Assembly (NCBI GenBank): GCA_035294085.1
Contig: DATGLP010000006.1
Span: 77,413 to 141,412 of the forward strand
Source: Acidimicrobiales bacterium
GTDB lineage: Bacteria > Actinomycetota > Acidimicrobiia > Acidimicrobiales > Bog-793
DNA: 64,000 bases
Reading direction: 5' to 3'
The number at the start of each line of letters is the position of its first letter. Positions within the stretch are counted from its first letter, which is position 1. The notes below the pieces were generated by a model. The model was given only the letters and a program-made list of their open reading frames with translations, ran no database searches and was not told the DNA's origin. The translations under genes and the position numbers were made by a program. Shown one piece after another: positions 42,041 to 63,982 of the stretch.

Positions 42041-42052
42041 GGAATCGATTCC
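42041..42052. promoter_or_regulatory. Operator copy 1: perfect palindrome GGAATCGATTCC upstream of hyuA1
   Basis: A perfect 12-bp palindrome lies 14 nt before the GTG of hyuA1. A TTGACC -35-like hexamer is at 42007-42012. The local sequence is AT-rich in an otherwise about 72% GC context. Confidence 0.6.
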
Positions 42053-42065
42053 GGCGAGGTGGGGC

Positions 42066-44171
42066 GTGCAGCCTGGGGAGCGGTGGAAGGTCGGGGTCGA
42101 CACCGGGGGGACCTTCACCGACCTCGTCGCACTCGGCCCGAGCGGCGAGGTCCGCCTCGTGAAGGTGAGCTCGACGCCGCGAGCGCCCGCGGACGCGGTG
42201 TTCGCCGCCCTCGAGCGCACCGGCCTCGCCCTCGGGACCGACCTCGAGCAGTTCGTGCTCGGCACGACGATCGCGACGAACGCGGTACTCCAGCGCAGCG
42301 GCGTGCGCACCCTGCTCCTCACGACGGCGGGGTTCGAGGACCTCCTCTACATCCAGCGGATCGACCGGCGAGGCCTGTACGACCTCCAGTGGGTGAAGAC
42401 CGCTCCGCTCGTGCCGAGCCACGACACGATCGGCGTCGCCGAGCGGATCCTCGCCGACGGCTCGGTCCTGCACGAGCTCACCGATGCCGAGCTCGAGCGC
42501 GTCGTGGCCGCGGTCGGCGCGCGCCTCGTCGAGCCGGAGCCCGCCCGCGCCGTGTCGATCTGCCTCCTGTTCAGCTACGTGAACGACCTCCACGAGCGGC
42601 GCCTCGCCGAGCGGCTCCGTCAGGCCTTCCCGGGCCTCGCGGTCTCGGTGTCGAGCGAGGTGGCCCCGATCTGGCGGGAGTACGAGCGCGCGAGCACGAC
42701 CACGATCGACGCCTTCGTCAAGCCGATCGTCACCGGCTTCTGCGAGTCCCTCGCCGAGGGGCTGGAGCGGCGCGCCGTGGGAGGGTGGCACGGGCTCATG
42801 AAGTCGAACGGGGGCCAGGTGCCGCTCGCGCGCGCCGCGGCCCGACCGGCCGAGCTCGTGCTCTCCGGGCTCGCCGGGGGCGTCATCGCCGGGAACCACT
42901 GGTGTCGCCGGCTCGGCTCGGACCGGGCCGTCACCCTCGACATGGGAGGGACGAGCGCCGACGTCGGCGTCATCGTCGACGGCCAGCTGATGTTCTCTGG
43001 GCTGTTCGAGGTCGAGTGGGGAATGCCGCTGTGCCTGCCGCTCATCGACGTCACGACCATCGGTGCCGGCGGGAGCTCGATCGCGTCGATCGACCGCACC
43101 GGGCTCGTACGCGTCGGGCCTGCGAGCGCGGGCGCCGACCCAGGGCCCGCCTGTTACGGCAGGGGCGGCCAGGACCCGACGATGACGGACGCCAACCTCG
43201 TGCTCGGCCGCCTGGACCCCGGCTACTTCCTCGGTGGCGAGCTCGTGCTCGACGAAGGCCGCGCCCGGTCGGCCATCGAGCCGCTCGCCGACACGCTCGG
43301 CCTCTCGGTCCCCGAGGCGGCCGACGCCATCATCGCGGTCGCGATCGAGAACATGGCCGGGGCAGTCCGCCTCGTCACCGTCGACCGCGGCCTCGACTAC
43401 CGGGACTTCGACCTCGTGGCCTTCGGCGGCGCCGGCCCGCTGCACGCCGCCGAGCTGGCGCGCCGGCTCGGCATGCGTCGCGTCGTCGTCCCGCCGGCAC
43501 CAGGGCTCGTCTCCGCCTTCGGCGCGGTGATCGCCGACGCGCGCGTGGACCGGCGGGCGACGCTCGTGCGCCGCCTCGACCGCCCGGAGGCCAAGGACGT
43601 GCCCGTCGAGCTCGCCCGGGTGGCCGAGCAGGCCGCCGCCGAGCTCGCCGCGCACGGGCGCGCGACCGACGAGATCGCGCTCAGCACCTACGTCGCCTGC
43701 CGCTACCTCGGTCAGAACTACGAGCAGGAGATCCGGATGTACCACGGTCACGTGGACAAGACGTTCGAGCTCGCGATCCCGATCAGGCCAGGCTCCCCGT
43801 CCTTCGTCGAGGAGCTCGCGGCGCGCTTCCACGAGCAGCACGAGCGCGCCTACGGGTACCACCTCGAGGACCAGCCGATCCAGGCCATCTACCTCGGCGC
43901 GACGGCCCTCGTCCCGGGACCCTCGGTCACCCTCCGGCCCTACGAGGGCGGCGCCCGCCAGCCGGCGACGCAGCGCCGGGTGCTGTGCGGTCGCGGCCAG
44001 TGGGCGCAGGCCACGGTGGTGCGCCGCGCCGGGCTCCGGCCGGGCACCTCGCTCGCCGGACCGGCGATCGTCGAGGAGCCGGACTCCACCACCTACGTGC
44101 CGCCCGGGTTCCTGCTCGAGGTGGACGACTCGGCCTGCCTCGTCCTGTCCGAGCGACCGGACCGGAGCTGA
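42066..44171 (+). CDS. Hydantoinase/oxoprolinase A-family subunit (HyuA-like), copy 1
   Basis: The 701-aa ORF reads WKVGVDTGGTFTDLVAL...GTTIATNAVLQRSGVRTLLLTTAGFEDLLYIQR, then DMGGTSADVG and GAGGSSIA, the ASKHA-fold motifs of the HyuA family. Confidence 0.9.
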   Translation: MQPGERWKVGVDTGGTFTDLVALGPSGEVRLVKVSSTPRAPADAVFAALERTGLALGTDLEQFVLGTTIATNAVLQRSGVRTLLLTTAGFEDLLYIQRIDRRGLYDLQWVKTAPLVPSHDTIGVAERILADGSVLHELTDAELERVVAAVGARLVEPEPARAVSICLLFSYVNDLHERRLAERLRQAFPGLAVSVSSEVAPIWREYERASTTTIDAFVKPIVTGFCESLAEGLERRAVGGWHGLMKSNGGQVPLARAAARPAELVLSGLAGGVIAGNHWCRRLGSDRAVTLDMGGTSADVGVIVDGQLMFSGLFEVEWGMPLCLPLIDVTTIGAGGSSIASIDRTGLVRVGPASAGADPGPACYGRGGQDPTMTDANLVLGRLDPGYFLGGELVLDEGRARSAIEPLADTLGLSVPEAADAIIAVAIENMAGAVRLVTVDRGLDYRDFDLVAFGGAGPLHAAELARRLGMRRVVVPPAPGLVSAFGAVIADARVDRRATLVRRLDRPEAKDVPVELARVAEQAAAELAAHGRATDEIALSTYVACRYLGQNYEQEIRMYHGHVDKTFELAIPIRPGSPSFVEELAARFHEQHERAYGYHLEDQPIQAIYLGATALVPGPSVTLRPYEGGARQPATQRRVLCGRGQWAQATVVRRAGLRPGTSLAGPAIVEEPDSTTYVPPGFLLEVDDSACLVLSERPDRS

Positions 44172-44175
44172 GGAC

Positions 44176-45975
44176 GTGGCGACGCACCTCCTCGCCGACG
44201 ACGCCGGGGCCGTCGACCGCGTCACCCTCACGCTCTTGCACCGCCAGCTCGTCAACATCTGCGACGAGATGGCGGTGTCGATGATGCGGACCGCCTACTC
44301 CCCCATCTTCTCGGAGGGGCTCGACTTCTCGACGCTGATCCTCGACCGGCACGGCGGCCTCGTCGCGACGGCCGGTCTCAACCCGGCGATGCTCGGGGCG
44401 TCCCTCTACGCCGCGACGTGGGTGATCCGCGAGGTCGGGCCGGACAACTTCAGCCCCGGCGACGTGTGGATCCACAACGACCCCTACCGCGGCGGCTCGC
44501 ACATGCCCGAGCACATGATGATCATGCCGATCTTCGTCGAGGACGAGATCGTGGCCTACGTCGGCAACATCGCGCACCTCGCCGAGATCGGGGGCATGGC
44601 ACCGGGATCCTTCGCCGCCACGGCGACCGACGTCTTCCAGGAGGGGCTGCGGCTCCCACCGGTCCGGCTCTTCCAAGGAGGCGAGCCCGTCCGGGACATC
44701 TGGCGGATCATGCTCTCGAACCACCGGACGCCGGCCAACAGCTGGGGCGACCTGCACGCCATGCTCGGGTCGCTGCGCGTCGGCGAGCGCCGGCTGCGCC
44801 AGCTCCTCGCGGAACGGGGCGTCGCGGAGCTCGACGAGGCCTTCGCGAGGCTGCAGGACTTCACCGAGGCCTGCCTGCGCCGGGAGGTCGCGGCGCTCCC
44901 CGACGGCGTCTACCGGGCCGAGGACTGCTTCGACGACGACGGGATCACCGATCGCCGCCACGTCGTGCGCCTCGCCGTCATCGTCGAGGGGGACGAGATC
45001 GTCTTCGACTACTCCGCATCGGACCCGCAGGCGATCGGCCCGATCAACGCACCCTACGTCGTCACGCTCTCGGCCTCGTTGAACGGCCTCCTCTACATCA
45101 TCGGCGAGGGGATCCCCGTCAACGCCGGCGTGGCCCGCGTCGCGCGCGTCGTCGCGCCGGCGGGGTCGATCTGCTGCGTGAAGCTCCCCGGCGCCTGCGT
45201 CGGCGGCCAGACGGAGAACCAGCCCCGGGTCATGGAGATGGTGATGGGCAGCGTGCTCGGGCAGCTCCTGCCCGAGCGCTGCGCCGCGGCGAGCGGCAAC
45301 ACGTCGCTGAACTTCCTCTTCGGCGGGGTCGACCCCCGCAGCGGCGAGTACTTCGCCCACTACCACTTCGAGGCGAACGGCTGGGGAGGCCGTGCTACGA
45401 GCGACGGGAACAACGCCCAGATCGTCCCCCACGCCAACTGCCGCAACACGCCGGTCGAGATCTTCGAGACGCGCTGGCCGTGGATCCACCACCGGTACGC
45501 GCTCAACCGGGACTCCGCGGGCGCCGGACGCCACCGGGGCGGGCTCGGGATCGAGCGAGTCCTCGAGGTGGCGGCGGACGTGATCACCGTGAGCGTGCTC
45601 GCCGACCGCGCCAAGGTGCCGCCGTGGGGCCTGTTCGGCGGCCAACCCGGGAGCCTGACGCGCGTCGAGCTGCGCCGCGCCGGCGAACGGGACTTCGCGT
45701 CCTTCCAGGAGCACTTCGGGCTCGTCAGCCCCTCGAAGTTCTCGAACGTGCGCCTGGTCCGCGGCGACCAGGTGCGCCTCGTCTCGCCGTCGGGTGGCGG
45801 CTACGGCGACCCCGCGACGCGCGACCCCGCCCTCGTCGCCGCCGACGTCCGCGAGGGCTTCGTCTCCCGGGAGAGCGCCGAGCGGTACTACCGCGTCGTC
45901 CTCGACGACAGCGGTGCGCTCGACGAGCGACGGACACGCGAGCTGCGGACGGGAGGCGGCGATGCCCTGGCGTGA
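44176..45975 (+). CDS. Hydantoinase B/oxoprolinase-family subunit (HyuB-like), copy 1
   Basis: The 599-aa ORF reads LLHRQLVNICDEMAVSMMRTAYSPIFSEGLDFSTLILD, GDVWIHNDPYRGGSHMPEH and DSAGAGRHRGGLG, the characteristic HyuB motifs. Confidence 0.9.
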   Translation: MATHLLADDAGAVDRVTLTLLHRQLVNICDEMAVSMMRTAYSPIFSEGLDFSTLILDRHGGLVATAGLNPAMLGASLYAATWVIREVGPDNFSPGDVWIHNDPYRGGSHMPEHMMIMPIFVEDEIVAYVGNIAHLAEIGGMAPGSFAATATDVFQEGLRLPPVRLFQGGEPVRDIWRIMLSNHRTPANSWGDLHAMLGSLRVGERRLRQLLAERGVAELDEAFARLQDFTEACLRREVAALPDGVYRAEDCFDDDGITDRRHVVRLAVIVEGDEIVFDYSASDPQAIGPINAPYVVTLSASLNGLLYIIGEGIPVNAGVARVARVVAPAGSICCVKLPGACVGGQTENQPRVMEMVMGSVLGQLLPERCAAASGNTSLNFLFGGVDPRSGEYFAHYHFEANGWGGRATSDGNNAQIVPHANCRNTPVEIFETRWPWIHHRYALNRDSAGAGRHRGGLGIERVLEVAADVITVSVLADRAKVPPWGLFGGQPGSLTRVELRRAGERDFASFQEHFGLVSPSKFSNVRLVRGDQVRLVSPSGGGYGDPATRDPALVAADVREGFVSRESAERYYRVVLDDSGALDERRTRELRTGGGDALA

Positions 45976-46153
45976 GCTCGGCAAGTCCTGGCACGACACC
46001 ACCGTCGACTACTGCGAGGTGTGCGGCAACCTCCTCATCCGCGCCTACTTCGAGTTCCGCGCGCCGGACGGGACCACCCGCCGGGCCTGCTGCGAGGACG
46101 ACGAGCGCCTCCTCGCGCTCCTCGAGCGACACCGAGTGGCGCCGGGCGGCTGA
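45962..46153 (+). CDS. Small Cys-rich hypothetical protein (63 aa) between the two HyuAB pairs
   Basis: ATG 45962 overlaps the hyuB1 3' end by 14 nt. The product is MPWRELGKSWHDTTVDYCEVCGNLLIRAYFEFRAPDGTTRRACCEDDERLLALLERHRVAPGG. Four Cys are present (CxxC plus CC). Third codon positions are almost all G/C. The stop lies 5 nt before the hyuA2 GTG. Confidence 0.6.
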   Translation: MPWRELGKSWHDTTVDYCEVCGNLLIRAYFEFRAPDGTTRRACCEDDERLLALLERHRVAPGG

Positions 46154-46158
46154 TCGCC

Positions 46159-48243
46159 GTGGACCGCTGGCGCGTCGGGATCGATACGGGCGGCACCTTC
46201 ACCGACCTCGTCGCCGTGCGCGGCTCGGCGCTGTCGAGCGCGAAGGTCCCCTCCACACCGCCCCGCTACGAGCAGGGGGTGCTCGACGCCCTGGCGGCGG
46301 CGGGCATCGACCTCGCCGAGACCGAGCTCGTGGCGCACGGCACGACGGTGGCGACGAACGCGGTGATCACGGGGCAGGTCGCGCCCACCGCGCTCCTCAC
46401 GACCGCGGGCTTCCGGGACGTCCTCGAGCTGCGCCGCCACAACCGGGGTGACCCCTTCGACATCATGTGGGACCCGCCGGCGCCGATCGTGCCCCGCCGC
46501 CACCGCTACGAGGTGCGCGAGCGCCTCGACTACGCCGGCGCGATCGTCGAGCCCCTCGAGGAGGCGGACGTCCTCGCCGCCGTCAAGTCGGCCCGTGCCG
46601 CGCGCATCACCTCCTTCGCCACCTGCTTCCTCCACTCCTACGAGAACCCCGACCACGAGCTGCGGGCGCGCTCGCTCATCCTCGAGGCCATGCCCGAGGC
46701 GACGGTCTCGTGCTCGTGCGAGCTGCTGCGCGAGCCCGACGAGTTCGAGCGCACCTCGACGACGGTGATCAACGCGTGCCTCGTGCCGGTCGTCGCGGGC
46801 TACCTGCGCTCCCTCGAGCGCCTCCTCGCCGCGGCGGGATTCCGCGGCAGGCTCGCCGTCATGCACTCCGGCGGCGGGCTGCTCTCGGTCGAGAGCGCGG
46901 CGCGCTTCCCGGCACGCCTCGTCACCTCGGGACCGGCCGCGGGCGCGATGGCGGCCGCCGGCGTCGCCGGGTCAGGCAGCCCGGCCGGCGGCGTGACCGC
47001 CGCCGAGGGGATCGCCCGGGCGACAGGCCTCGACGAGGTGATCTCCCTCGACATCGGCGGGACGAGCGCGGACATCGCGGTCATCAGGGGCGGCCGGGCG
47101 CGCCTCGTCAACGAGTACTCGCCGCAGTTCGGCCAGGTGATCCGCTTCCCGGCAGTCGACCTCGTCACGATCGGCGCCGGGGGCGGCTCGATCGCGTGGG
47201 TGGACGCGGGGGGCCTGCCGCACGTCGGGCCGCAGAGCGCGGGGGCCGTCCCCGGCCCCGCGGCCTACCTGCGCGGCGGCACCGCCGCGACGGTGACCGA
47301 CGCGAACGTCGTGCTCGGGCGCCTCGGCGGGGGCTTCGGCCTGGCGGGCGGGGTCGCGCTCGACGAGGGCGCGGCGACGCGTGCCGTCGAGGAGTTCGCG
47401 TCCCGGCTCGGGCTCACGGTAGCGGCGGCTGCGCTCGGCATCGTCGAGCTGGTCGTCGACAGCATGGCCCGGTCGATCCGCGTCGTCACCGTCGAGCGCG
47501 GCCTCGACCCGCGGGACTTCACCCTCGTCGCCTTCGGGGGCGCCGGGCCGCTGCTCGCCGCCGAGCTCGCCGCCGCCCTCGACATGCGCCGGGTCGTCGT
47601 CCCGCTCGCGCCCGGGGTGACCTCGGCCCTCGGGTGCCTGCACGTCGACATCGCCCACGACGTCGCCGAGGCGTTCATCGCCCCGCTCTCGGCGCTCGGG
47701 CGCGACGCTGTGGCCGCGCGCCTCGGCGCGCTCGCCGCGCAGCTCCACGAGCGGCTCGACCTCGACGGCGTGGCGCCGGACGAGCGGCGCATCGAGCTCG
47801 CGCTCGACCTGCGCTACGTCGGGCAGGTGAAGGCGCTCACCATCCCCGTCACCCCGGAGGCGCTCGCCGGGGACCTCGCCGGGACGCTGCTCGAGCGGTT
47901 CTACGAGGAGTACGAGCGCCAGTTCCACTTCGCCACCCGCGACATCCCGGTCGAGACCGCCGCGCTGCGGGCCCGTGGGCTGCGGCCGGCGCGTCGGCCG
48001 ACGATCCCATTCGTCCCGGGACGGTCGGGCGCGCCGACGACCGAGCGGAAGGTGGTGACGAAGGCCGGCGAGCTGCCCACGCCCGTGTACGCGCGCAAGG
48101 AGCTGCCGGTCGGCACGCGCCTGCGCGGTCCGGCCATCGCGGTGCAGGCCGACTCGACGACCTGGGTCCCGCCGGGCTGGCAGGCAGAGGTCGACGCGCT
48201 GGGCAACCTCGTCATCGAGCGGACGAGCTGGGAGGCGCCGTGA
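46159..48243 (+). CDS. Hydantoinase/oxoprolinase A-family subunit (HyuA-like), copy 2
   Basis: In-frame GTG 46159 gives VDRWRVGIDTGGTFTDLVAV...GTTVATNAVITGQVAPTALLTTAGFRDVLELRR, then DIGGTSADIA and GAGGGSIA. The product is 694 aa and is clearly paralogous to copy 1. Confidence 0.9.
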   Translation: MDRWRVGIDTGGTFTDLVAVRGSALSSAKVPSTPPRYEQGVLDALAAAGIDLAETELVAHGTTVATNAVITGQVAPTALLTTAGFRDVLELRRHNRGDPFDIMWDPPAPIVPRRHRYEVRERLDYAGAIVEPLEEADVLAAVKSARAARITSFATCFLHSYENPDHELRARSLILEAMPEATVSCSCELLREPDEFERTSTTVINACLVPVVAGYLRSLERLLAAAGFRGRLAVMHSGGGLLSVESAARFPARLVTSGPAAGAMAAAGVAGSGSPAGGVTAAEGIARATGLDEVISLDIGGTSADIAVIRGGRARLVNEYSPQFGQVIRFPAVDLVTIGAGGGSIAWVDAGGLPHVGPQSAGAVPGPAAYLRGGTAATVTDANVVLGRLGGGFGLAGGVALDEGAATRAVEEFASRLGLTVAAAALGIVELVVDSMARSIRVVTVERGLDPRDFTLVAFGGAGPLLAAELAAALDMRRVVVPLAPGVTSALGCLHVDIAHDVAEAFIAPLSALGRDAVAARLGALAAQLHERLDLDGVAPDERRIELALDLRYVGQVKALTIPVTPEALAGDLAGTLLERFYEEYERQFHFATRDIPVETAALRARGLRPARRPTIPFVPGRSGAPTTERKVVTKAGELPTPVYARKELPVGTRLRGPAIAVQADSTTWVPPGWQAEVDALGNLVIERTSWEAP

Positions 48244-50036
48244 ACGCGGGGCGGGATGGCCTTCGGACGCGGGACCCGATCCTGTTCCAGGTGCTCTACA
48301 ACGCCTTCTCGAGCGTCGTCGACGAGATGGGGGCGCTGCTCCAGAAGGTGGCGTTCTCGCTCGTCGTGAGCGAGGGGCGAGACTACTCGGGGACGATCTG
48401 CACCGCGAGCGGCGACCTCGTCGCGTCGGGGAGCACGGACCTCCCCGCGCACCTCGGGACGATCCCGTTCACGGTGAAGGGGACCCTCGCGTGGGTCGGA
48501 CCGCACCCCGAGCGCTTCTTCCGCGAGGGCGACGTCGTCCTCGTCAACGACCCCTACATCGGGGGCACGCACCACAACGACGTGCGCGCGATCATGCCGG
48601 TCTTCCTCGGCGGACGCCTCGCCGCCTTCGTCCAGTGCTCCGCGCACTGGACCGACATCGGCGGGGCGGTCCCGGGCACCTTCGACCCGAACGCGCGCAG
48701 CTCCTACGGGGAGGGCCTGGCCATCACGCCGGTCCACGTCGTGCGTGGCGGGGTCCTCGAGCGCGAGGTCGTCGACCTCATCTTGCGCAACGTGCGCATG
48801 CCGGAGGTCGCCTACGGGGACCTCCTCGCCCAGATCGGCGCGGTCCGCCTCGGCGAGCGGCGGCTGCAGGAGCTGGCGCGCCGCCACGGCGAGGAGACGA
48901 TCGTCGCGGTCATGGACGAGGTGATCGGCTACGCCGAGGACGTGCTGCGCCACGAGTTCGCGCAGCTGCCCGACGTGTCCATCCCGGTCGAGGCGCTCAT
49001 CGACCGGGACCCGGGGGCCGACGACGACACCCCGCTCGCGGTGCGCATGCGCCTCACGATCAGCGGGGACCGGGCGACGATGGACTTCTCCGAGTCCTCG
49101 GGTCTCGCGCGCGGGGCGATGAACGCCTCCAAGGCCGTGTGCATCTCGTCGGCCGTCGTGACCTTGAAGATGATCTTCCCCCACGTCCTCATGAACGAGG
49201 GCGTGTTCCGGGCGGTCGACTTCGTCGTGCCCGACGGCCTGCTCGTCTCGGCACCTTTCCCCGCCCCGACCTCGGGCATGGCTGCCGGCGTCTACCCGGC
49301 TGTCGCCGACTGCGTGCTGAAGGCCTTCATCCAGATCGCGCCGGAGCGGTGCATGGCGGGGCCGACGGGCCTCCTCAACATCGTCATCGGTGGCTACGAC
49401 CCGCGGCCGGGGTTCGAGCGCGACTACGTCGCGTACCTGTGGCTCGAGGGCGGCTGGGGCGGGCGCCCCGCGGCCCGGGACAACCACACGGCGATGACCA
49501 CGTTCGCGACGACGGCGACGAACCAGCCCGTCGAGCTCCAGGAGCGCCTCTTCCCGCTGCGCTACGAGTGCTACCGGCTCGAGCCCGACAGCGCCGGCCC
49601 CGGTCGCTCCCGAGGCGGTCTCGGCGTGCGCCGGCGCTGGTACCTCACGGAGGCCGAGGGGGTGCTGTCGGACCTCGGCGACGGCGAGCGCTTCGGGCCC
49701 TGGGGCTGGGCCGGCGGCGGCGACGCGGCGCCGAACCGCTTCGTCTACGGCCCGGGCACCCCCGAGGAGGTGAACATCGGGATGTTCTGCACCGGCATGC
49801 GCCTCGAGCCCGGCCGCATCCTCGACTGCTTCCAGCCCGGCGGTGGCGGCTACGGGGACCCCTTCGAGCGCGACCCCGCCTGGGTCCTCGACGACGTCCT
49901 CGACGGCTACGTCTCGGTCGCGGCAGCCGAGCGGGACTACGGCGTCGTCGTCCGCCCCCTCGCCACGGGGGGCTTCGCCGTCGACGAGGAGGCGACCCGC
50001 GCGGCTCGCTCGCGCCCGAGGCGGCAGCGAGCGTGA
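48240..50036 (+). CDS. Hydantoinase B/oxoprolinase-family subunit (HyuB-like), copy 2
   Basis: GTG 48240 forms a GTGA overlap with the preceding stop. It reads FQVLYNAFSSVVDEMGALLQKVAFSLVVSEGRDYSGTI, GDVVLVNDPYIGGTHHND and DSAGPGRSRGGLG. The product is 598 aa. Confidence 0.9.
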   Translation: MNAGRDGLRTRDPILFQVLYNAFSSVVDEMGALLQKVAFSLVVSEGRDYSGTICTASGDLVASGSTDLPAHLGTIPFTVKGTLAWVGPHPERFFREGDVVLVNDPYIGGTHHNDVRAIMPVFLGGRLAAFVQCSAHWTDIGGAVPGTFDPNARSSYGEGLAITPVHVVRGGVLEREVVDLILRNVRMPEVAYGDLLAQIGAVRLGERRLQELARRHGEETIVAVMDEVIGYAEDVLRHEFAQLPDVSIPVEALIDRDPGADDDTPLAVRMRLTISGDRATMDFSESSGLARGAMNASKAVCISSAVVTLKMIFPHVLMNEGVFRAVDFVVPDGLLVSAPFPAPTSGMAAGVYPAVADCVLKAFIQIAPERCMAGPTGLLNIVIGGYDPRPGFERDYVAYLWLEGGWGGRPAARDNHTAMTTFATTATNQPVELQERLFPLRYECYRLEPDSAGPGRSRGGLGVRRRWYLTEAEGVLSDLGDGERFGPWGWAGGGDAAPNRFVYGPGTPEEVNIGMFCTGMRLEPGRILDCFQPGGGGYGDPFERDPAWVLDDVLDGYVSVAAAERDYGVVVRPLATGGFAVDEEATRAARSRPRRQRA

Positions 50037-50788
50037 GCAGCGCGCACGAGCGGCCGGTCGTCGCGCTCACCGGCGCGGCGGGGACGATCGGGTCGGCGAT
50101 CGCCCGTGAGCTCGCGCGCCGGGAAGCCCGCCTCGTCCTCGTCGACCGTGACGAGGACGCGCTGCGGTCGCTCGCCGCGCTCCGTGCGGACCACCTCCTC
50201 CTCGCCGAGGACGTCAGCGCCGAGGGGGCAGCTGCGCGCGTGCTCGACGCCGCGCGCGACCGGTTCGGCCGTCTCGACGCCGTCGTCAACAACGCCGGCA
50301 TCGCGGGACCGGTCGGTCCGATCGAGGACGCGCCGTTCGCCGAGGTCGAGCGCGTCTTCGACGTGAACGTGCTCGCCGTGGTCCGCGTGCTGCAGGCGGT
50401 CATCCCCCACTTCCGCGCCCGGGGCAACGGCCGCGTCGTCAACGTCGCCTCGGGCGCCGGCCTGGCCGGGACCGCCTACCTGGCCGCCTACAGCGCGACC
50501 AAGCACGCGGTCGTGGGACTGACCCGCTCGGTCGCCGCGGAGCTCGCGCGCTGCGGCGTCTCGGTGAACGCCGTCTGCCCGGGCTGCGTCGCCTCCCCGA
50601 TGATGGGCCGCATCGAGGCCGCCCTGGCGGACGCGCTCGGCGCCCCGGCCTCCTTCGAGGCGGCGATCCCCGCGGGCCGCTACGCACGGCCCGAGGAGGT
50701 CGCGAACCTCACCGCCTACCTCGCGCTCGACGCCCCGCCCTACCTCACCGGGGCGGCGGTCGTCCTCGACGGCGCGATGCGCGCCTAG
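50033..50788 (+). CDS. Short-chain dehydrogenase/reductase (SDR) 1
   Basis: GTG 50033 forms a GTGA overlap with the preceding stop. It has TGAAGTIGSAIA, NNAG and the catalytic YSATKHAV. The product is 251 aa. Confidence 0.85.
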   Translation: MSSAHERPVVALTGAAGTIGSAIARELARREARLVLVDRDEDALRSLAALRADHLLLAEDVSAEGAAARVLDAARDRFGRLDAVVNNAGIAGPVGPIEDAPFAEVERVFDVNVLAVVRVLQAVIPHFRARGNGRVVNVASGAGLAGTAYLAAYSATKHAVVGLTRSVAAELARCGVSVNAVCPGCVASPMMGRIEAALADALGAPASFEAAIPAGRYARPEEVANLTAYLALDAPPYLTGAAVVLDGAMRA

Positions 50789-51629: not shown

Positions 51630-51658
51630 TTGACGGCGCCGGGCGACCCTCCTAGCAT
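51630..51658 (+). promoter_or_regulatory. Sigma-70-type promoter of the ABC-transporter operon
   Basis: TTGACG (51630-51635), a 17-nt spacer, then TAGCAT (51653-51658). Operator copy 2 begins 8 nt downstream of the -10. Confidence 0.55.
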
Positions 51659-57502: not shown

Positions 57503-58264
57503 ATGTTCGAGCTGACCGGCACGATCGCCCTCGTCACGGGCGGCGGGAGCGGCCTCGGCGCCGCCATCGCGGAGGGACTCGCCGCACAGGGTGCGCACGT
57601 CGCGATCGCCGACCTCGACCTGGCGCGGGCCGAGGAGGTCGCCGGGCGCGTGCACGAGCGCGGCGGCCAGGCAAGCGCCTGGCGCCTCGACGTGAGCCGC
57701 CACGCCGAGGTCGAGGCGTGCGTCGCCGAGATCGCCGGCACCGTGGGCCCCATCGACGTCCTCGTCGCCTCGGCTGGGATCGGCGTCCGCCGACCGGCCG
57801 TCTCGCTCAGCCCCGAGGACTGGCAGCGCGTCATCGACGTCAACCTGAGCGGCTGCTGGTTCTGCGACCAGGCGGTCGGCCGGCGGATGATCGAGGACGG
57901 GAGGCCCGGGTCGATCATCAACATCGGGTCGGTGGTGGGCCAGGTGGGCATCGACACCGGGAACGCCAACTACGCCGCGAGCAAGGGAGGCATCATCGGC
58001 CTCACCAAGTGCCTGGCCGTCGAGTGGGCCCCGGCGGGCGTGCGCGTCAACGTCATCGCCCCAACGCACTTCAAGACGCCGCTCGTCGAGCAGGCCATCG
58101 CGGACCGGCCCGAGCTCGAGCAGCGGTTCCTCGCCAACATCCCCCTCGGACGGCTCGGCGAGCCGAGGGAGATCGTCGGCGCCGCCGTCTTCCTCGCCTC
58201 CGACGAGTCCTCGATGGTCACCGGCCACGTGCTGAACGTCGACGGGGGACACACCGCGAGGTGA
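57503..58264 (+). CDS. Short-chain dehydrogenase/reductase (SDR) 3, KduD/gluconate-5-dehydrogenase-like
   Basis: It has VTGGGSGLGAAIA, the catalytic YAASKGGI, then IAPTHFKTP and GHVLNVDGG. The product is 253 aa. Confidence 0.9.
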   Translation: MFELTGTIALVTGGGSGLGAAIAEGLAAQGAHVAIADLDLARAEEVAGRVHERGGQASAWRLDVSRHAEVEACVAEIAGTVGPIDVLVASAGIGVRRPAVSLSPEDWQRVIDVNLSGCWFCDQAVGRRMIEDGRPGSIINIGSVVGQVGIDTGNANYAASKGGIIGLTKCLAVEWAPAGVRVNVIAPTHFKTPLVEQAIADRPELEQRFLANIPLGRLGEPREIVGAAVFLASDESSMVTGHVLNVDGGHTAR

Positions 58265-58382: not shown

Positions 58383-59150
58383 ATGACCTGGGACCTCGGC
58401 GCAGGGCTCGAGTCGCGCGCCGTGATCGTGACCGGCGCGGCCGGCGGGATCGGCCGCGAGGTGGCCAAGGCCTTCGCCGCGGCGGGCGCGAAGGTGCTGG
58501 CGGTCGACCGGCCCGGCGCGGACGCCGGCGGGCTCCTCGAGTCGCTCGAGGGGACCGACCACCGCTACCGCGCCGTCGACCTCGGCGACCTGTCGACCCA
58601 CGACGCCCTCGTCGCCGAGGCTCGCTCGGCCTTCGGCGAGCTGTACGCGCTCGTCCACCTCGCCGCGGTGCTGCGACGCCAGCAGCACCTCAGCGACGTG
58701 CGGGAGGAGGACTGGGACTTCCAGGTCGACACGAACCTGAAGGCGACCTTCTTCCTCTGCCGCGCCGCCGCCGAGGCGATGGTGGAGCAGGGCCGCGGCG
58801 GGCGCATCATCACCTTCACCTCCCAGGGGTGGTGGACGGGCGGCTTCGGGGGCTCGGTCGTCTACAACGCGACGAAGGGCGGCATCGTCACGATGACGCG
58901 GGGCATGGCCCGCACGTACGGGCCGCACGAGATCACCTGCAACTCCATCGCCCCCGGGCAGGTGCGCACTCCGATGCTGCTGACCGGCCTGAGCGACGAG
59001 GTGCTCGAGACGATGACGCGCGCGACGCCGCTCGGCCGCATCGCCGAGCCCGAGGAGATCGCGGGGGTCGCCGTCTTCCTCGCCAGCCGGCACGCCGCCT
59101 TCATCACCGGGGCGACGATCAACATCACCGGAGGCTTCCTCATGTACTGA
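58383..59150 (+). CDS. Short-chain dehydrogenase/reductase (SDR) 4
   Basis: It has VTGAAGGIGREVA, the catalytic YNATKGGI, then IAPGQVRTPM and GATINITGG. The product is 255 aa. Confidence 0.88.
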   Translation: MTWDLGAGLESRAVIVTGAAGGIGREVAKAFAAAGAKVLAVDRPGADAGGLLESLEGTDHRYRAVDLGDLSTHDALVAEARSAFGELYALVHLAAVLRRQQHLSDVREEDWDFQVDTNLKATFFLCRAAAEAMVEQGRGGRIITFTSQGWWTGGFGGSVVYNATKGGIVTMTRGMARTYGPHEITCNSIAPGQVRTPMLLTGLSDEVLETMTRATPLGRIAEPEEIAGVAVFLASRHAAFITGATINITGGFLMY

Positions 59151-59194: not shown

Positions 59195-59223
59195 TTGACG
59201 CCCTCGCGGCCGACCAGTAGTTT
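59195..59223 (+). promoter_or_regulatory. Sigma-70-type promoter of the enolase/CoA-transferase/E1 operon
   Basis: TTGACG (59195-59200), a 17-nt spacer, then TAGTTT (59218-59223). It has the same -35 hexamer and spacing as the promoter at 51630. Confidence 0.55.
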
Positions 59224-59247
59224 GAAACCGATTCTGGAATCGATAAC
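59224..59247. promoter_or_regulatory. Operator copies 3a and 3b (tandem): GAAACCGATTCT + GGAATCGATAAC
   Basis: Two adjacent 12-mers match GGAATCGATTCC at 9 of 12 and 10 of 12 positions. They start immediately after the -10 hexamer and end 14 nt before the GTG at 59261. Confidence 0.6.
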
Positions 59248-59260: not shown

Positions 59261-60376
59261 GTGCAGCTTCGAATCCGCGCCATCGAGACGATCCCGATCC
59301 GGGTGAGCCTCGCACGGCTGTATCGCGGCAGCCACTACAAGATGCCGAACCGCTGCACGATCATCACGCGCGTCGTCACCGAGGAGGGCGTCGTCGGCCA
59401 GTCCTACAACGCGGACGCCGACGAGGAGCAGGCGACGATCGTCCGCATCATCCACGACGAGCTCGCCCCGCTCGTCACCGGACGTGACGCCTTCGCCTAC
59501 GAGGACTGCTGGGAGGCGATGCGCCGGATCACCTTCGACCAGCTGCGCGACCGGCGCTTCGCGATGCAGGCCATCGCCTGCGTCGACTCGGCGGCCTGGG
59601 ACGCGATCGGCAAGGCCCTCGGCGTGCCGCTCTTCAGGCTGTGGGGAGGTTTCCGCAACGCCGTGCCGATCATCGGGATCGGCGGCTACTACACGGATGA
59701 CCCCGGGAGCATCGAGCAGGAGGTGGGCTTCTTCTCCGACGAGGGGTTCACCGGCATGAAGTTCAAGATCGGGGGCCTCTCGCCGGCCGAGGACGCCGAA
59801 CGGCTCCGGCGCGCCGTCAAGGCGGCCCGACCCGGATTCCGCTTCCTCGTCGACGCCAACCAGGCCTGGACGGTCGCCGAGGCCGTCGAGTTCGTCGCCC
59901 GGGTCCGCGACTTCGTCGACCTTCGCTGGTTCGAGGAGCCGTGCCAGTGGCCCGACGACCGGCGTGCGATGCGCGACGTCCGCTACAAGACCGGCGTGCC
60001 CGTCGCCGCGGGCCAGATGGAGATCACGCGGTCGGGGATGCGGGACCTCATGGTCGCCGGCGCCATCGACGTCTCCAACTTCGACGCCTCCTGGGGCGGC
60101 GGGCCGACGGAGTGGCGCCGCGTCGCGCAGCTCGCCGCGAGCTTCGGCGTCGAGATGGGCCACCACGAGGAGGCCCAGGTCTCGAGCCACCTCCTCGCCG
60201 CCATCCCGCACGGCACCTACGTCGAGGCGTTCCACCCCGAGCGCGACCCGATCTTCTGGCGGATGCTCGCCAACCGGCCGGACCTGAGCGAGGGGCTCTT
60301 CACGCTCCCGGAGGCGCCGGGCTTCGGCTGGGACCTCGACGAGGACTTCGTCGAGGAGTTCCGGGCGGACCGCTGA
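59261..60376 (+). CDS. Enolase-superfamily enzyme (mandelate racemase/muconate lactonizing family, probable acid-sugar dehydratase)
   Basis: In-frame GTG 59261 gives a 371-aa product. It reads AIACVDSAAWDAIGKALGVPLFRLWGG, FKIGG, the metal-ligand regions FLVDANQAW and WFEEP, then PVAAGQ and DVSNFD. Confidence 0.88.
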   Translation: MQLRIRAIETIPIRVSLARLYRGSHYKMPNRCTIITRVVTEEGVVGQSYNADADEEQATIVRIIHDELAPLVTGRDAFAYEDCWEAMRRITFDQLRDRRFAMQAIACVDSAAWDAIGKALGVPLFRLWGGFRNAVPIIGIGGYYTDDPGSIEQEVGFFSDEGFTGMKFKIGGLSPAEDAERLRRAVKAARPGFRFLVDANQAWTVAEAVEFVARVRDFVDLRWFEEPCQWPDDRRAMRDVRYKTGVPVAAGQMEITRSGMRDLMVAGAIDVSNFDASWGGGPTEWRRVAQLAASFGVEMGHHEEAQVSSHLLAAIPHGTYVEAFHPERDPIFWRMLANRPDLSEGLFTLPEAPGFGWDLDEDFVEEFRADR

Positions 60377-60441: not shown

Positions 60442-61674
60442 ATGAGCGCTCCCCGGCCGCTCGAGGGCGTCCGGATCCTCGCCCTCGAGCAGTACGGCGC
60501 GGGGCCCTTCGCCACCCTGCAGCTCGTCGACCTCGGCGCCGACGTGATCAAGGTCGAGGACCCGGCGACCGGCGGGGACGTCGGCCGGCGGGTCCCCCCC
60601 TACGCCACCGACGACGCGAGCGTCTTCTTCGAGTCGTTCAACCGTGGCAAGCGCTCGATCGCGCTCGACCTCTCGAGCGACGCGGGGCGCGCGCTGTTCG
60701 AGCGGCTCGTCGAGCGCTGCGACGCCGTCTTCGCCAACCTGCGCGGTGACGTGCCCGCCAAGCTGCGGCTGCGCTACGAGGACCTGCGCCACCTGAACGA
60801 GCGCGTCGTGTGCTGCTTCCTCAGCTCCTACGGCATCGAGGGCAGCGAGCAGCGCGAGCCGGGCTACGACTACGTGATCCAGGGGCGCGCCGGGTGGATG
60901 TCGCTCACCGGCGAGCCCGACGACCCACCCGAGAAGACCGGGCTGTCCCTCGTCGACTACTCGACCGGCCTCGTCGCCGCGCTCTCCCTCGTCAGCGCGC
61001 TCCACGCCGCCCGCCGCACCGGTAAGGGCGCGGACTGCGACGTCGCCCTCTTCGACACCGCCATCGCGATGCTCACCTACCCGGGGGCCTGGCACCTGAG
61101 CCGCGGCTTCTCGCCGACGCGCACGACGCGCTCGGCCCACCCGTCGCTCATCCCCTTCCAGAACTTCCGCACCGCGGATGGCTGGATCGTCGTCGCCTGC
61201 GCGAAGGAGAAGTTCTGGCAGCGCCTGGTCCACGTGCTCGGCCGGCCGGAGCTCGCCGACGATGCGCGCTACTCGAGCTTCGAGGCGCGCCGGGAGAACG
61301 CGTCGATCCTGCTCCCCGAGCTCGACCGTCTCTTCGCGGCGCGGCACACCGGGGAGCTCCTCGCCGCCCTGCGCGCTGCGGGCGTCCCCTGCGGCCCGGT
61401 CAACGACGTCGCCGGCGCGCTCGCGGACCCCCTCGTCGCGGAGCGCGGGCTCGTCGTCGAGACCGAGCACCCGAGCCTCGGGACCGTCCGGCAGCTCGCT
61501 AGCGCGCCGCGCGTCGGCCCCTTCGAGCCGGCGCGCCGGCGCGGCCCCTTCCTCGGCGAGCACACCGAGGAGGTCCTCGGCGAGCTGCTCGGGCTCGACG
61601 AGGCGGCCATCGCCGACCTCGGGCGCGAGGGGGCGTTCGGCCGGGAGTGGCGCAGCGCCTCTCGGGCGAGCTAG
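60442..61674 (+). CDS. Class III (CaiB/BaiF-family) CoA-transferase
   Basis: In-frame ATG 60442. It reads PLEGVRILALEQYGAGPFATLQLVDLGADVIKVE and NRGKRSIALDL, then the catalytic-Asp region SLVDYSTG, then LGEHTEEVL. The product is 410 aa. Confidence 0.9.
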   Translation: MSAPRPLEGVRILALEQYGAGPFATLQLVDLGADVIKVEDPATGGDVGRRVPPYATDDASVFFESFNRGKRSIALDLSSDAGRALFERLVERCDAVFANLRGDVPAKLRLRYEDLRHLNERVVCCFLSSYGIEGSEQREPGYDYVIQGRAGWMSLTGEPDDPPEKTGLSLVDYSTGLVAALSLVSALHAARRTGKGADCDVALFDTAIAMLTYPGAWHLSRGFSPTRTTRSAHPSLIPFQNFRTADGWIVVACAKEKFWQRLVHVLGRPELADDARYSSFEARRENASILLPELDRLFAARHTGELLAALRAAGVPCGPVNDVAGALADPLVAERGLVVETEHPSLGTVRQLASAPRVGPFEPARRRGPFLGEHTEEVLGELLGLDEAAIADLGREGAFGREWRSASRAS

Positions 61675-61718: not shown

Positions 61719-62729
61719 ATGGCGAAGCTGCGGATGAACCAGGCCATCGCCCTGGCCCTCGGCGAGGAGATGGCGCGCGACGAGCGCGTCGTGCTGCTGG
61801 GCGAGGACGTGGCCGAGGCGGAGGGGCCCTTCAAGACCTCGGAGGGCCTGCTGCGCCGCTTCGGCCCGACGCGGGTGCGCGACACGCCGATCTCGGAGAT
61901 GGGCTTCCTCGGCGCGGCCGTCGGAGCGGCGATGACCGGGCTGCGCCCGGTCGTCGAGATCATGTTCATCGAGTTCCTCGGGGTCGCCCTCGACCAGGTC
62001 GTCACCGAGGCCGCGATGATGCACTTCCTGTCGGGCGGGAAGGTGAGCGTCCCGCTCACCGTGCGAGCCTCGGCCGGCGCGGGGCTCGGCTTCGGCTGCC
62101 AGCACTCCCAGACGCTCGAGCGCTGGCTGCTCGGCACACCGGGCCTCAAGCTGGCGGTCGCCTCCGGCGCGCGCAGCGCCTACGGCCTCACGAAGGCCGC
62201 CATCCGCCACGACGACCCGGTCGTGCTCCTCGAGCCGCGCACCCTCTACGGCCGGCGGGAGGACTTCGAGCCGGGCGAGGACGCCGTCGTCCCCCTCGGC
62301 AGCGCGGAGGTGCTACGCGAGGGCTCTGACGTCACGATCGTGGCGCTCGGCCAGACGGTGGGCGTCGCGCTCGAGGCGGCCGAGGCCTCGAAGGACTTCT
62401 CGGCGGAGGTCATCGACCTGCGGACGCTCCTGCCCTGGGACCGGGACCTCCTGCGAGCCTCGGTCGCGAAGACGCGCCGGCTCGTCACCGTGGAGGAGAA
62501 CCAGTACACCGGGGGGTGGGGCACCGACATCGTCGCGCACCTGGCGTCGGTCGCCCACGCGGAGCTCGCGGCGCCGCCGGTGCGGGTCACCGCACCGGAC
62601 ACGCACGTCCCCTACGGCACCGAGCTCGAGGCTCGCTTCGTCCCGACGAGCGAGTACCTCGCGGCCCAGGTTCGTTCGCTGCTCCGCACGGGCACGGCGC
62701 CGAGGCACTGGTGGGAGGAGGAGCTGTGA
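61719..62729 (+). CDS. Thiamine-diphosphate-dependent 2-oxoacid/acetoin dehydrogenase E1 component, beta subunit
   Basis: It reads MNQAIALALGEEMARDERVVLLGEDV, RVRDTPISEMGFLGAAVGAAMTGLRPVVEIMF and LLPWDRD. The product is 336 aa. Confidence 0.92.
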   Translation: MAKLRMNQAIALALGEEMARDERVVLLGEDVAEAEGPFKTSEGLLRRFGPTRVRDTPISEMGFLGAAVGAAMTGLRPVVEIMFIEFLGVALDQVVTEAAMMHFLSGGKVSVPLTVRASAGAGLGFGCQHSQTLERWLLGTPGLKLAVASGARSAYGLTKAAIRHDDPVVLLEPRTLYGRREDFEPGEDAVVPLGSAEVLREGSDVTIVALGQTVGVALEAAEASKDFSAEVIDLRTLLPWDRDLLRASVAKTRRLVTVEENQYTGGWGTDIVAHLASVAHAELAAPPVRVTAPDTHVPYGTELEARFVPTSEYLAAQVRSLLRTGTAPRHWWEEEL

Positions 62730-63733
62730 CGCAGGTCGACGAGTCGACGAAGGAGCCGCTCGCGCGCCGGGAGGCGCTGCAGTCCGGCCGGCGCGCCCGC
62801 TACGAACGGATGGTCGAGATCCGCCTCGTCGAGGACAAGGTCATGGAGCTGTTCGCGCAGGGCATGATCGCCGGCACGACGCACACCGCGCAGGGCCAGG
62901 AGGCGGTCTGCGTCGGCATCGCCGCGGTGGCCCGTCCCGACGACGTGGTCGCCTGCACCTACCGGGGTCACGGGATGGCGCTGGCCCTCGGCGCGACGCG
63001 CGAGGCGGTGCTCGGCGAGATCCTCAACCGCCAGGTGGGCTGCATGGGCGGCCTCGGCGGCTCGATGCACCTGAGCGAGCTGTCGGTCGGCCTGCTCCCG
63101 ACGATGGCGATCGTCGGCGCGGGCATCCCGATCGGCGCGGGCGCGGCGCTCAGCGCGCAGGTCCTCGGGCGGGACAACGTCGCGATCTCCGTCTTCGGCG
63201 ACGGCGCGTCCAACATCGGGGCCTTCCACGAGGGGCTCAACCTCGCGGCGATCTGGAAGCTGCCGGTCGTGTTCGTCTGCGAGAACAACCAGTACGGCGA
63301 GTACACCCGGATCGACCGGACCACGCCGGTACAGGACATCGCGACGCGCGCCGCCTCGTACGCGATCCCCGGTGAGATCGTCGACGGCCAGGACGTCGAC
63401 GCGGTGGAGGCCGCCGTGTCGAGGGCGATCGCGAGAGCCCGCGCCGGCGAGGGGCCGACGCTCATCGAGGCGAAGACCTACCGCTACTCGGGGCACTCGC
63501 GCTCGGACAAGGCGACCTACCGGCCGCCGGGCGAGCTCGAGGCGTGGCGGGCGCGCGACCCGATCACCCTGTTCGGGCGCAAGCTCGTGGAGGAGGGGAC
63601 GGTGCGGCCGGAGGAGCTCGAGGCGATCGAAGGCGAGCAACGGCGCCTCGTCGAGGAGACGGTCGCGCGCGTCCTCGACAGCCCGCGTCCCACGGCGGCG
63701 CAGATGCTCGAGCGGGTCGCGGCGAGCAGCTAG
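62726..63733 (+). CDS. Thiamine-diphosphate-dependent 2-oxoacid/acetoin dehydrogenase E1 component, alpha subunit
   Basis: GTG 62726 forms a GTGA overlap with the preceding stop. It reads YRGHGMALA, the ThDP motif GDGASNIGAFHEGLNLAAIWKLPVVFVCENNQY, and YRYSGHSRSD. The product is 335 aa. Confidence 0.92.
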   Translation: MTQVDESTKEPLARREALQSGRRARYERMVEIRLVEDKVMELFAQGMIAGTTHTAQGQEAVCVGIAAVARPDDVVACTYRGHGMALALGATREAVLGEILNRQVGCMGGLGGSMHLSELSVGLLPTMAIVGAGIPIGAGAALSAQVLGRDNVAISVFGDGASNIGAFHEGLNLAAIWKLPVVFVCENNQYGEYTRIDRTTPVQDIATRAASYAIPGEIVDGQDVDAVEAAVSRAIARARAGEGPTLIEAKTYRYSGHSRSDKATYRPPGELEAWRARDPITLFGRKLVEEGTVRPEELEAIEGEQRRLVEETVARVLDSPRPTAAQMLERVAASS

Positions 63734-63742
63734 GAGGAAACG

Positions 63743-63982
63743 GTGCGCTACGAGGTCACGCTCCCCAAGCTCGGCGACGCGATGCAGAGCGCGCTCGTCA
63801 CGGAGTGGCGCTGCGCTGTCGGCGATCGGGTGGAGGCGGGGGCGCCGCTCGTCACCGTCGAGACGGACAAGGTGACGACCGAGGTCCCCTCGCCGGTCGC
63901 CGGCACGGTGGTCGAGCTGGCCGTCGCCCCCGACGACGAGGTCGAGGTCGGGGCGCTGCTGTGCACGATCGAGACGGCCTGA
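63743..63982 (+). CDS. Stand-alone lipoyl-attachment domain protein (79 aa)
   Basis: MRYEVTLPKLGDAMQSALVTEWRCAVGDRVEAGAPLVTVETDKVTTEVPSPVAGTVVELAV... is a complete lipoyl domain with the lipoyl-lysine motif ETDKV. The ORF ends with TGA at 63980-63982, with no E2 catalytic domain attached. Confidence 0.8.
   Translation: MRYEVTLPKLGDAMQSALVTEWRCAVGDRVEAGAPLVTVETDKVTTEVPSPVAGTVVELAVAPDDEVEVGALLCTIETA

Follow-up and report, generated by a model that had tools for sequence, protein, structure and literature searches.

The LacI family has been surveyed in detail by Ravcheev et al. 2014 (PMC4052901): approximately 90% of its regulators are local sugar regulators, 72% are autoregulated, and 1173 of 1303 motifs are even palindromes with a central CG. 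More than one site is found at approximately 20% of the regulated operons, and overlapping sites approximately 13 bp apart are found at 110 operons (PMC4052901). In this study, we analyzed a 64,000-nucleotide stretch of contig DATGLP010000006.1 from an Acidimicrobiales bacterium (hereafter, the window), in which copies of one palindrome, GGAATCGATTCC (consensus tGGAATCGATTCCa), lie upstream of three catabolic operons. We propose, with a probability of roughly 80%, that this palindrome is the operator of a local LacI-family repressor encoded by the last gene of the third operon. Because all of the family features above are seen here, the system is an ordinary LacI regulon in kind.

Similar to the local LacI sugar regulons (RbsR, GalR/GalS, and CcpA-cre; PMC4052901), the site has an even palindromic form, a central CG, and a TGNAANCGNTTNCA architecture. 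Additionally, a regulator with a helix-turn-helix and a periplasmic-binding-protein-like domain is encoded within the sugar cluster that it would regulate, autoregulation is probable, and several operons carry one or two sites each, including overlapping tandems approximately 12–13 bp apart. In contrast to the catalogued regulons, the half-site is specific (GGAAT), and the host lineage consists of uncultured Actinomycetota, probably members of Acidimicrobiia. We found no description in the literature of the target-gene set of this LacI. The regulatory logic, a local LacI repressor acting on palindromic operators, is textbook and by itself would not surprise specialists; the pathway under its control, which is probably uncharacterised, is of more interest than the regulatory system.

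Palindromic sites in the window

Coding frames were assigned by third-position GC content and gene families by Pfam, which confirmed the gene content listed in an earlier note on this DNA. Operon 1 (42066–51554) comprises hyuA1, hyuB1, hyuA2, hyuB2, and two short-chain dehydrogenase (SDR) genes, SDR1 and SDR2. Operon 2 (51725–59150) encodes a Peripla_BP_4 solute-binding protein (SBP), a double ABC ATPase, a BPD_transp_2 permease, a 633-aa protein, SDR3, and SDR4. Within the window, operon 3 (59261–63982) encodes an enolase-superfamily (MR_MLE) enzyme, a family III CoA-transferase, the E1 beta and E1 alpha subunits of a thiamine-diphosphate-dependent (ThDP-dependent) enzyme, and a 79-aa lipoyl protein. 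The coordinates of all genes and sites are listed in Table 1.

The 9-mer GGAATCGAT gives four strand-matches at three places in the window, namely 42041 (+)/42044 (-), 51667, and 59236; it is counted on both strands at 42041 because the 12-mer GGAATCGATTCC found there is a perfect palindrome. All of these sites are intergenic and upstream of operons, as the earlier note had claimed. In dinucleotide-preserving shuffles of the window (n = 100; GC content, 74.3%), the expected number of matches was 0.14, close to the approximately 0.1 per 64 kb estimated previously, and 0/100 shuffles reached four matches. The palindrome just ahead of hyuA1 (O1) proved on direct reading to be perfect, as had been stated, and 13 nt separate its end from the GTG start codon at 42066. 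O2 lies 8 nt past a -10 hexamer and 47 nt ahead of the start codon of the SBP gene. Upstream of operon 3, O3a directly adjoins O3b, with a centre-to-centre distance of 12 bp. When up to three mismatches are allowed, matches to the palindrome are no more frequent than by chance (14 observed vs 18.8 expected); hence O3a, the degenerate second copy noted earlier at 59224–59235, is present but not significant alone and needs outside support, which comes from the conservation of the tandem in relatives described below. Two of the three-mismatch matches are the T-arms of tRNA genes (GGATTCGAACCC at 5314 and GGACTCGAACCC at 5456).

A 16-bp symmetrised matrix was built from five sites and scanned over 73,982 bp, that is, the window and 10 kb of downstream contig sequence. 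The five sites score 19.5–25.5 bits, the next best match scores 15.8 bits, and all others score at most 11.6 bits. The earlier note had proposed testing whether the motif is confined to these promoters, and within 74 kb, the matrix sites are indeed limited to four promoter-proximal intergenic regions of the island. The looser skeleton AANCGNTT occurs seven times in the 74 kb, and four of these occurrences are island operators. The sixth-best matrix match (12307, 15.8 bits) was rejected as unrelated, since it falls in a CIRCE element upstream of hrcA and covers the spacer and right arm of that element. This CIRCE-like inverted repeat, GTAGCAGTC-N9-GAGTGCTAG, occupies 12296–12322, just ahead of the gene.

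Promoter-like sequences lie close to several of the operators. The TTGACG-17-TAGCAT site that the earlier note had placed 8 nt before the site at 51667 was found by the promoter scan at 51630–51658, and its end lies 8 nt ahead of O2. The second proposed promoter, TTGACG-17-TAGTTT, is present in the sequence, and O3a begins right after it, but it falls below the scan threshold because its second hexamer matches at just 3/6 positions. A TAGNNT hexamer is found at the equivalent place just ahead of the tandem in the related loci L006 (TAGCTT), L008, and L009 (both TAGACT). At three of the four promoters, the operator starts 0–8 nt after a -10-like hexamer (TAGCAT, TAGTTT, or TAGGAT).

With sites probably located in transcribed leaders near ribosome-binding sites, and with GGAAUCGAUUCC able to form a 4-bp stem with a tetraloop, the palindrome might instead act as an RNA hairpin in 5' leaders, affecting stability or translation. 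We regard this explanation as very improbable. The leaders fold no more stably than shuffled sequences (z = +1.1, 0.0, and +0.25), and no Rfam family matches the leader regions. Furthermore, departures from the palindrome among 32 sites are non-compensatory, pair 2/11 being complementary in 16/32 sites and pairs 3/10 and 5/8 in 19/32, while the invariant positions are those of the central A-CG-T.

A probable LacI-family regulator at the end of operon 3

By looking up the lipoyl protein, we reached the window's own contig, ena:ERZ27279669:k141_640419 (212,856 bp; L002), with 10 kb of extra downstream DNA. Its overlap with the window was verified to be identical. Operon 3 runs on past base 64000: the lipoyl gene is followed by a second enolase-superfamily gene, MR_MLE(b), and then by a LacI-family gene (hereafter, the island LacI), which begins approximately 1.2 kb past base 64000 and stands at the operon 3 end. 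The earlier note had stated that no regulator gene lies inside the island; this statement does not hold, and it arose because the window edge cut off the third operon. After the island LacI come a DAP_DH_C-type dehydrogenase gene and a 152-aa open reading frame.

A fourth operator, O4, lies farther downstream, two bases past a TAGGAT hexamer and 13 nt ahead of SDR5, which is followed by an AP_endonuc_2 TIM-barrel gene. The proposal of a co-regulated catabolic island marked by the shared palindrome is supported by the confinement of the motif to the island and by its conservation in relatives, described below. The proposed extent of approximately 22 kb, in contrast, was too small, with a fourth operator and operon lying beyond the window. 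O1 and O4 share an identical 17-nt context, ATGAGGAATCGATTCCG (42036–42053 and L002:15199–15216), and both are 13 nt before a GTG start, which suggests a promoter duplication or an extended constraint. A PIN-domain toxin and ribbon-helix-helix antitoxin gene pair (VapBC-like; L002:14335–14990 (-), ~window 68077–68732) is located between the LacI end and O4.

The island LacI gives full-length matches to proteins of its family, the nearest being CcpA, RbsR, and PurR. Its orthologues from five loci are 62–65% identical overall and have a near-invariant DNA-binding head, IKIKEVAxLAxVAPSSVSRxLN...GYQPNFLAQSLR. Such constancy agrees with the conservation of the operator.

The only LacI gene inside the window is the one at 3059–4096, which had been named as a candidate regulator, and its recognition helix partly resembles the one in the island LacI (VHPSTASRAL vs VAPSSVSRAL), so that some cross-recognition is possible. 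That the motif is the operator of this protein rather than of the island LacI is nevertheless quite improbable. The 3059–4096 protein shares only 29% identity with the island LacI, and its recognition helix is followed by a 2-residue insertion. Its gene is 38 kb away, beside M24 peptidase and Peripla_BP_6 genes, and no operator-like site was found near it, the best matrix score in 1–5000 being 5.9 bits. Moreover, the LacI proteins encoded next to operators in relatives are 49–66% identical to the island LacI vs 30–36% to the 3059–4096 paralogue. Judging from these comparisons, the island LacI is the likely regulator, and the earlier candidate is not retained.

Based on the positions of the sites, we suggest the following mechanism. 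A repressor dimer would occupy the -10/+1 region and block transcription initiation, and at two promoters, a pair of overlapping dimers might bind 12 bp apart. The repressor would then be released when its periplasmic-binding-protein-like domain takes up the transported sugar or an intermediate of the pathway. Because its gene is the last of operon 3, the island LacI would also be autoregulated. Derepression would turn on uptake by the CUT2 ABC system and oxidative catabolism of an aldose.

Conservation of gene order and operators in related loci

A contig scan with HyuB2 gave one distant metagenome-assembled genome (MAG), L001, and the other loci were found through homologous proteins. We compared nine related metagenomic loci with 59–69% GC (L004–L013, with the almost identical assemblies L006 and L007 taken as one locus). 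Orthologues of the 633-aa protein (53–65% identity) and of the island LacI (49–70%) were found in metagenomes and MAGs only. Few of the carriers are named, and these belong to Acidimicrobiales, Acidimicrobiaceae, Acidimicrobiia, Solirubrobacteraceae, and Euzebyaceae.

In its complete form, the cluster reads SBP, ATPase, permease, the gene for the 633-aa (ApnL-like) protein, SDR, SDR, MR_MLE(a), CoA-transferase, E1 beta, E1 alpha, lipoyl, MR_MLE(b), and LacI. This order is kept as a whole in L006/L007 and L008 and from the ApnL-like gene onward in L004, L009, and L011, whereas the cluster is rearranged in L005, L012, and L013. The enzymes are mostly 60–87% identical across the loci; for example, SDR3 orthologues are 71–83% identical in six loci. 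The LacI gene follows MR_MLE(b) in L004, L006/L007, L008, L009, and L011, and in L012 and L013 it stands beside the E1/lipoyl genes. MIase-like, MaoC/Htd2-like, and HpcH/CitE-like genes often come after the cluster in relatives.

The earlier note had proposed looking for the motif upstream of orthologous operons in relatives, and it recurs there: scanning with the window-built matrix gives strong sites at equivalent positions in each of the nine loci. L006/L007, L008, and L009 have tandem pairs, spaced 12 bp apart, directly upstream of MR_MLE(a); this tandem has been retained in four lineages. Upstream of the SBP gene, one or two sites are found in L005, L006, L008, and L010. The ApnL-like gene is preceded by two sites in a divergent region in L004 and L011 and by one site in L009. 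In L008, GGTATCGATTCC lies upstream of the hyuA1B1 orthologues (75–84% identity; 84% for hyuB1), which are followed by an SDR2 orthologue (74% identical). L012 has one site immediately ahead of its LacI gene. In L013, whose LacI is only 49% identical, the variant GGTATCGTTTCC occurs upstream of rhaM and in a GFO/SDR divergent region. As a separate observation, the distant MAG L001 (59% GC) has GGAAACGATACC at L001:5854 in an SDR/MR_MLE divergent intergenic region. Besides hyuA2B2 orthologues, this MAG has SDR and MR_MLE genes together with genes for E1 beta and a lipoyl protein, and no LacI gene was seen in the 21.8 kb retrieved.

When orthologous upstream regions are aligned, the operator is the sole invariant block besides the ribosome-binding site and start codon; the regions upstream of the SBP gene are 43% identical outside the operator block. 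In six loci left out of matrix building (130 kb, 10.2% intergenic), 14/16 matches scoring 16 bits or more fall between genes (binomial P = 1.3e-12). The consensus of 32 sites is tGGAATCGATTCCa, with A4, C6, G7, and T9 invariant. This even palindrome with its invariant C6 and G7 agrees with the LacI/GalR-type operator skeleton with a central CG recognised previously. The probability that the shared sequence is a product of chance, or a functionless remnant of duplicated promoter DNA as the 17-nt identity of O1 and O4 (ATGAGGAATCGATTCCG) might suggest, is close to negligible: no shuffle (0/100) reached the observed count, and the motif occurs at orthologous positions in 59–69% GC genomes whose intergenic DNA is otherwise diverged.

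Another alternative is that a regulator of a different family, for example ROK, GntR, or IclR, is encoded elsewhere and binds the motif, while the island LacI controls something else. L010 would fit this alternative, since it has operators and no LacI gene in the 21 kb retrieved. However, even palindromes that combine a central CG with AANCGNTT arms are the signature of the LacI family (PMC4052901), and LacI co-occurs with the motif in 8/9 related loci (L004, L006–L009, and L011–L013) as well as on the window's contig. Moreover, the site in L012 is directly upstream of the LacI gene, and no other regulator gene is conserved in the related loci. We therefore consider a regulator of another family unlikely.

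Several observations weigh against assigning the palindrome to the island LacI. First, the pairing of regulator and operator rests on co-localisation and co-conservation. Second, L010 keeps two good operators upstream of the SBP gene, but none of the E1, lipoyl, or LacI genes was found in its 21 kb. Third, the promoter scan gave no promoter-like site ahead of O1 or O4, which makes any placing of these two operators relative to the transcription start tentative. The centres of the operators are 19–52 bp from start codons, partly closer than the family-typical 30–140 bp (PMC4052901). Fourth, two strong matches in relatives, L006:3753 and L009:9882, lie in called coding sequence; the 40-codon open reading frame around the latter is probably spurious, and the former may be a chance match or an internal site. 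Finally, no operators are present upstream of the SDR5/AP_endonuc_2 orthologues in L009 or L010, which indicates that membership of the fourth operon is specific to the window's lineage, and the relatives were inspected within 10 kb of the cluster, so that more distant targets are possible.

Two further observations concern individual sites in these loci. The L006:3753 match (also L007:3233), GGAATCGATCCC, scores 18.3 bits and lies inside a LutB/LutC-like lactate-utilisation gene beside the cluster. In L010, the tandem before MR_MLE(a) has decayed (GTAAACAGTTCTAGGACCAACA, L010:13471–13554).

The genes of the island and a putative sugar pathway

The transporter genes of operon 2 are those of a CUT2 importer, with a Peripla_BP_4 SBP, an ATPase with two fused ABC_tran domains, and a BPD_transp_2 permease. 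The SBP has only weak relatives in the PDB (best 6gq0, E = 4.5e-19). Next to them, the 633-aa protein, called unknown in the earlier note, is a distant relative of D-apionate lactonase (ApnL): precomputed Pfam matches assign Apionate_lact_N (PF25837) and Apionate_lact_M (PF25838), and the NCBIfam D-apionate lactonase model NF049900 matches over the full length with E = 1.5e-42, at 146 bits vs a cut-off of 750. By these scores, it is a member of the ApnL superfamily and not an ApnL equivalog. It had no match in the local Pfam-A copy and none in the PDB by sequence; the former is due to the age of the library and is no sign of novelty. MR_MLE(a) matches PDB entries 3MSY, 4H83, and 3NO1 at E ~1e-137, and these entries are without assigned function. 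Collectively, the CUT2 importer, two SDRs, the ApnL-like protein, and the dehydratase-like MR_MLE enzymes would form the upper part of a non-phosphorylative oxidative aldose pathway. Its first steps would be catalyzed by a sugar 1-dehydrogenase (an SDR), the ApnL-like lactonase, the enolase-superfamily dehydratase, and a second SDR, and the substrate is probably an aldose oxidised through a lactone.

D-Apiose and D-apionate are reportedly catabolised by an oxidative route, and the known apiose pathway genes encode the ApnO oxidoisomerase, the OiaK kinase, and a RuBisCO-like decarboxylase or transcarboxylase. Similar to that system, the island encodes an ApnL-family protein beside a CUT2 ABC transporter and sugar dehydrogenases. 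It differs in the low score of the ApnL-like protein and in an SBP without a close PDB relative. Pfam gives other assignments to nearly all genes of the island and its 10-kb extension, and no ApnO, OiaK, RuBisCO-like, or DUF1537-type gene is among them.

Non-phosphorylative pathways proceed through a sugar dehydrogenase, a lactonase, an enolase-superfamily dehydratase, and an SDR-type 2-keto-3-deoxy-acid dehydrogenase. As in the L-fucose, L-rhamnose, and pentose pathways of this type, the island has an SDR, a lactonase, an MR_MLE dehydratase, an SDR, and a CUT2 transporter. In contrast, its lactonase is ApnL-type, there is no FAH-type hydrolase, and the set is extended by a CoA-transferase, the two E1 subunits, a free lipoyl carrier, MR_MLE(b), and HyuAB. 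An HpcH/HpaI-family gene, a possible aldolase or CoA-ester lyase, is absent from the window and present in relatives.

The lower pathway would involve the family III CoA-transferase and the pyruvate dehydrogenase-like E1 alpha/beta with the free lipoyl carrier, here accompanied by two ATP-dependent HyuAB enzymes. The nearest models of the CoA-transferase are succinate-glutarate and succinyl-CoA:mesaconate CoA-transferases, both below cut-off. In common with pyruvate/acetoin-type 2-oxoacid dehydrogenase complexes, both E1 subunits, alpha and beta, are nearest to pyruvate dehydrogenase E1, the closest solved relatives of E1 alpha being pyruvate dehydrogenase E1 alpha subunits, and the lipoyl protein carries an ETDK motif. 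Unlike in those complexes, the lipoyl domain is a free 78–81-aa protein in every locus having one, and neither an E2 catalytic domain nor E3 is encoded in the island or any related locus; a complete 2-oxoacid dehydrogenase complex is therefore not encoded here. Among the window (61719–63982), L004, L006–L009, and L011–L013, the E1 beta/alpha genes are followed by the free lipoyl gene in most cases.

Both HyuAB subunit families occur twice in operon 1 with full-length matches, as expected for the ATP-dependent enzymes caprolactamase, N-methylhydantoinase, 5-oxoprolinase, and acetone/acetophenone carboxylases. In contrast to these enzymes, the island proteins score far below the equivalog cut-offs (467 and 276 bits vs 1000; 250 vs 1500). 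For hyuA1, the nearest NCBIfam model is caprolactamase alpha (467 bits vs cut-off 1000), and the nearest PDB entries are the N-methylhydantoinases 7hk5 and 6yra. The second HyuA is a divergent paralogue, an L001 orthologue being 59% identical to hyuA2 vs 37% to hyuA1. By Pfam, operon 1 contains no gamma or third subunit gene, unlike the acetone/acetophenone carboxylases. We found no precedent in the searchable literature for HyuAB in a sugar-catabolism context.

In agreement with the earlier note, which did not recognise a described pathway, we found no paper describing this gene combination, nor any sugar pathway described as uniting an ApnL-like lactonase with two HyuAB pairs and with E1 alpha/beta plus a free lipoyl protein. 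We tentatively suggest, at somewhat less than even odds, that the regulon marks an undescribed oxidative sugar route in which an ApnL-type lactonase and two enolase-superfamily enzymes feed an E2/E3-less E1/lipoyl system and a CoA-transferase, with two ATP-dependent HyuAB enzymes recruited to the same operator in the window's lineage and MIase-like, MaoC-like, and CitE/HpcH-like genes added in relatives. Such a route would be found here almost only in uncultured Actinomycetota (Acidimicrobiia-like MAGs). If this is true, the HyuAB family would for the first time be linked to the breakdown of carbohydrates. Possible substrates are branched or 6-deoxy sugars of plants or algae, for example, apiose, fucose, or rhamnose. 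Among the neighbours in relatives are fucosidases and an Amidohydro_2 lactonase (L004 and L011), rhaM (L013), and lactate-utilisation genes (L006); these point to plant or algal deoxy or branched sugars and are not decisive.

The operator and the conserved gene order define which genes belong together in a cluster of uncultured Acidimicrobiia-like bacteria. Moreover, they supply defined material for ligand screening and for in-vitro reconstitution, namely a regulator, an operator, a binding protein, and a set of enzymes.

Table 1. Operators, promoter-like sites, and genes of the window and of the adjoining contig sequence (L002 coordinates).
Feature	Location	Strand	Evidence
Operator O1, perfect palindrome GGAATCGATTCC	42041..42052	.	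direct reading; matrix 23.2 bits
Operator O2, GGAATCGATTGC	51667..51678	.	direct reading; matrix 25.5 bits
Operator O3a, GAAACCGATTCT, distal copy of tandem	59224..59235	.	matrix 19.5 bits
Operator O3b, GGAATCGATAAC, proximal copy of tandem	59236..59247	.	direct reading; matrix 22.2 bits
Operator O4, perfect GGAATCGATTCC	L002:15204-15215 (~window 68946)		
Promoter-like site TTGACG-17-TAGCAT, operon 2	51630..51658	+	promoter scan: 9/12 matches, none in shuffles
Weak promoter-like site TTGACG-17-TAGTTT, operon 3	59195..59223	+	direct reading; below scan threshold
hyuA1, hydantoinase/oxoprolinase A-type subunit	42066..44171	+	Pfam Hydantoinase_A, Hydant_A_N, Hydant_A_C
hyuB1, hydantoinase B-type subunit	44176..45975	+	Pfam Hydantoinase_B
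hyuA2, second, divergent HyuA paralogue	46021..48243	+	Pfam
hyuB2	48240..50036	+	Pfam
SDR1, short-chain dehydrogenase	50033..50788	+	Pfam
SDR2, last gene of operon 1	50790..51554	+	Pfam
CUT2-type solute-binding protein, Peripla_BP_4	51725..52876	+	Pfam
ABC ATPase, two ABC_tran domains	53006..54469	+	Pfam
ABC permease, BPD_transp_2	54459..55598	+	Pfam
633-aa ApnL-like protein, putative sugar lactonase	55595..57496	+	Pfam PF25837/PF25838; NCBIfam NF049900
SDR3	57503..58264	+	Pfam
SDR4, last gene of operon 2	58383..59150	+	Pfam
MR_MLE(a), enolase superfamily, resembles acid-sugar dehydratases	59261..60376	+	Pfam, NCBIfam
Family III CoA-transferase	60442..61674	+	Pfam
ThDP-dependent E1 beta subunit	61719..62729	+	Pfam
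ThDP-dependent E1 alpha subunit	62726..63733	+	Pfam
Free-standing 79-aa lipoyl carrier, motif ETDKV	63743..63982	+	Pfam
MR_MLE(b), second enolase-superfamily gene, after lipoyl gene	L002:10286-11413		
Island LacI-family gene, 347 aa, 65 bp after MR_MLE(b)	L002:11479-12522 (~window 65221-66264)		
SDR5	L002:15229-15981		
AP_endonuc_2 TIM-barrel gene, after SDR5	L002:16007-16912		
LacI-family gene, adjoins M24 peptidase gene and Peripla_BP_6 gene	3059-4096	-	
Two tRNA genes	5303-5375 and 5445-5516	-	
BldD-like regulator gene (HTH_3 + BldD-like_C)	17781-18332		

Upstream of the island, an acetyl-/acetoacetyl-CoA-synthetase-like gene (ACAS_N + AMP-binding) occupies 39975–41957, between a sigma-70 gene and hyuA1; it lacks an operator of its own, and no terminator is predicted between it and O1. 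The BldD-like regulator gene and the gene order hrcA-dnaJ...era-recO-glyS-dnaG-sigma support an actinomycetotal origin of the DNA. From approximately 5 to 39 kb, the window carries housekeeping genes, including gltX, lepA, hrcA, dnaJ, phoH, ybeY, era, recO, glyS, dnaG, and the sigma-70 gene.

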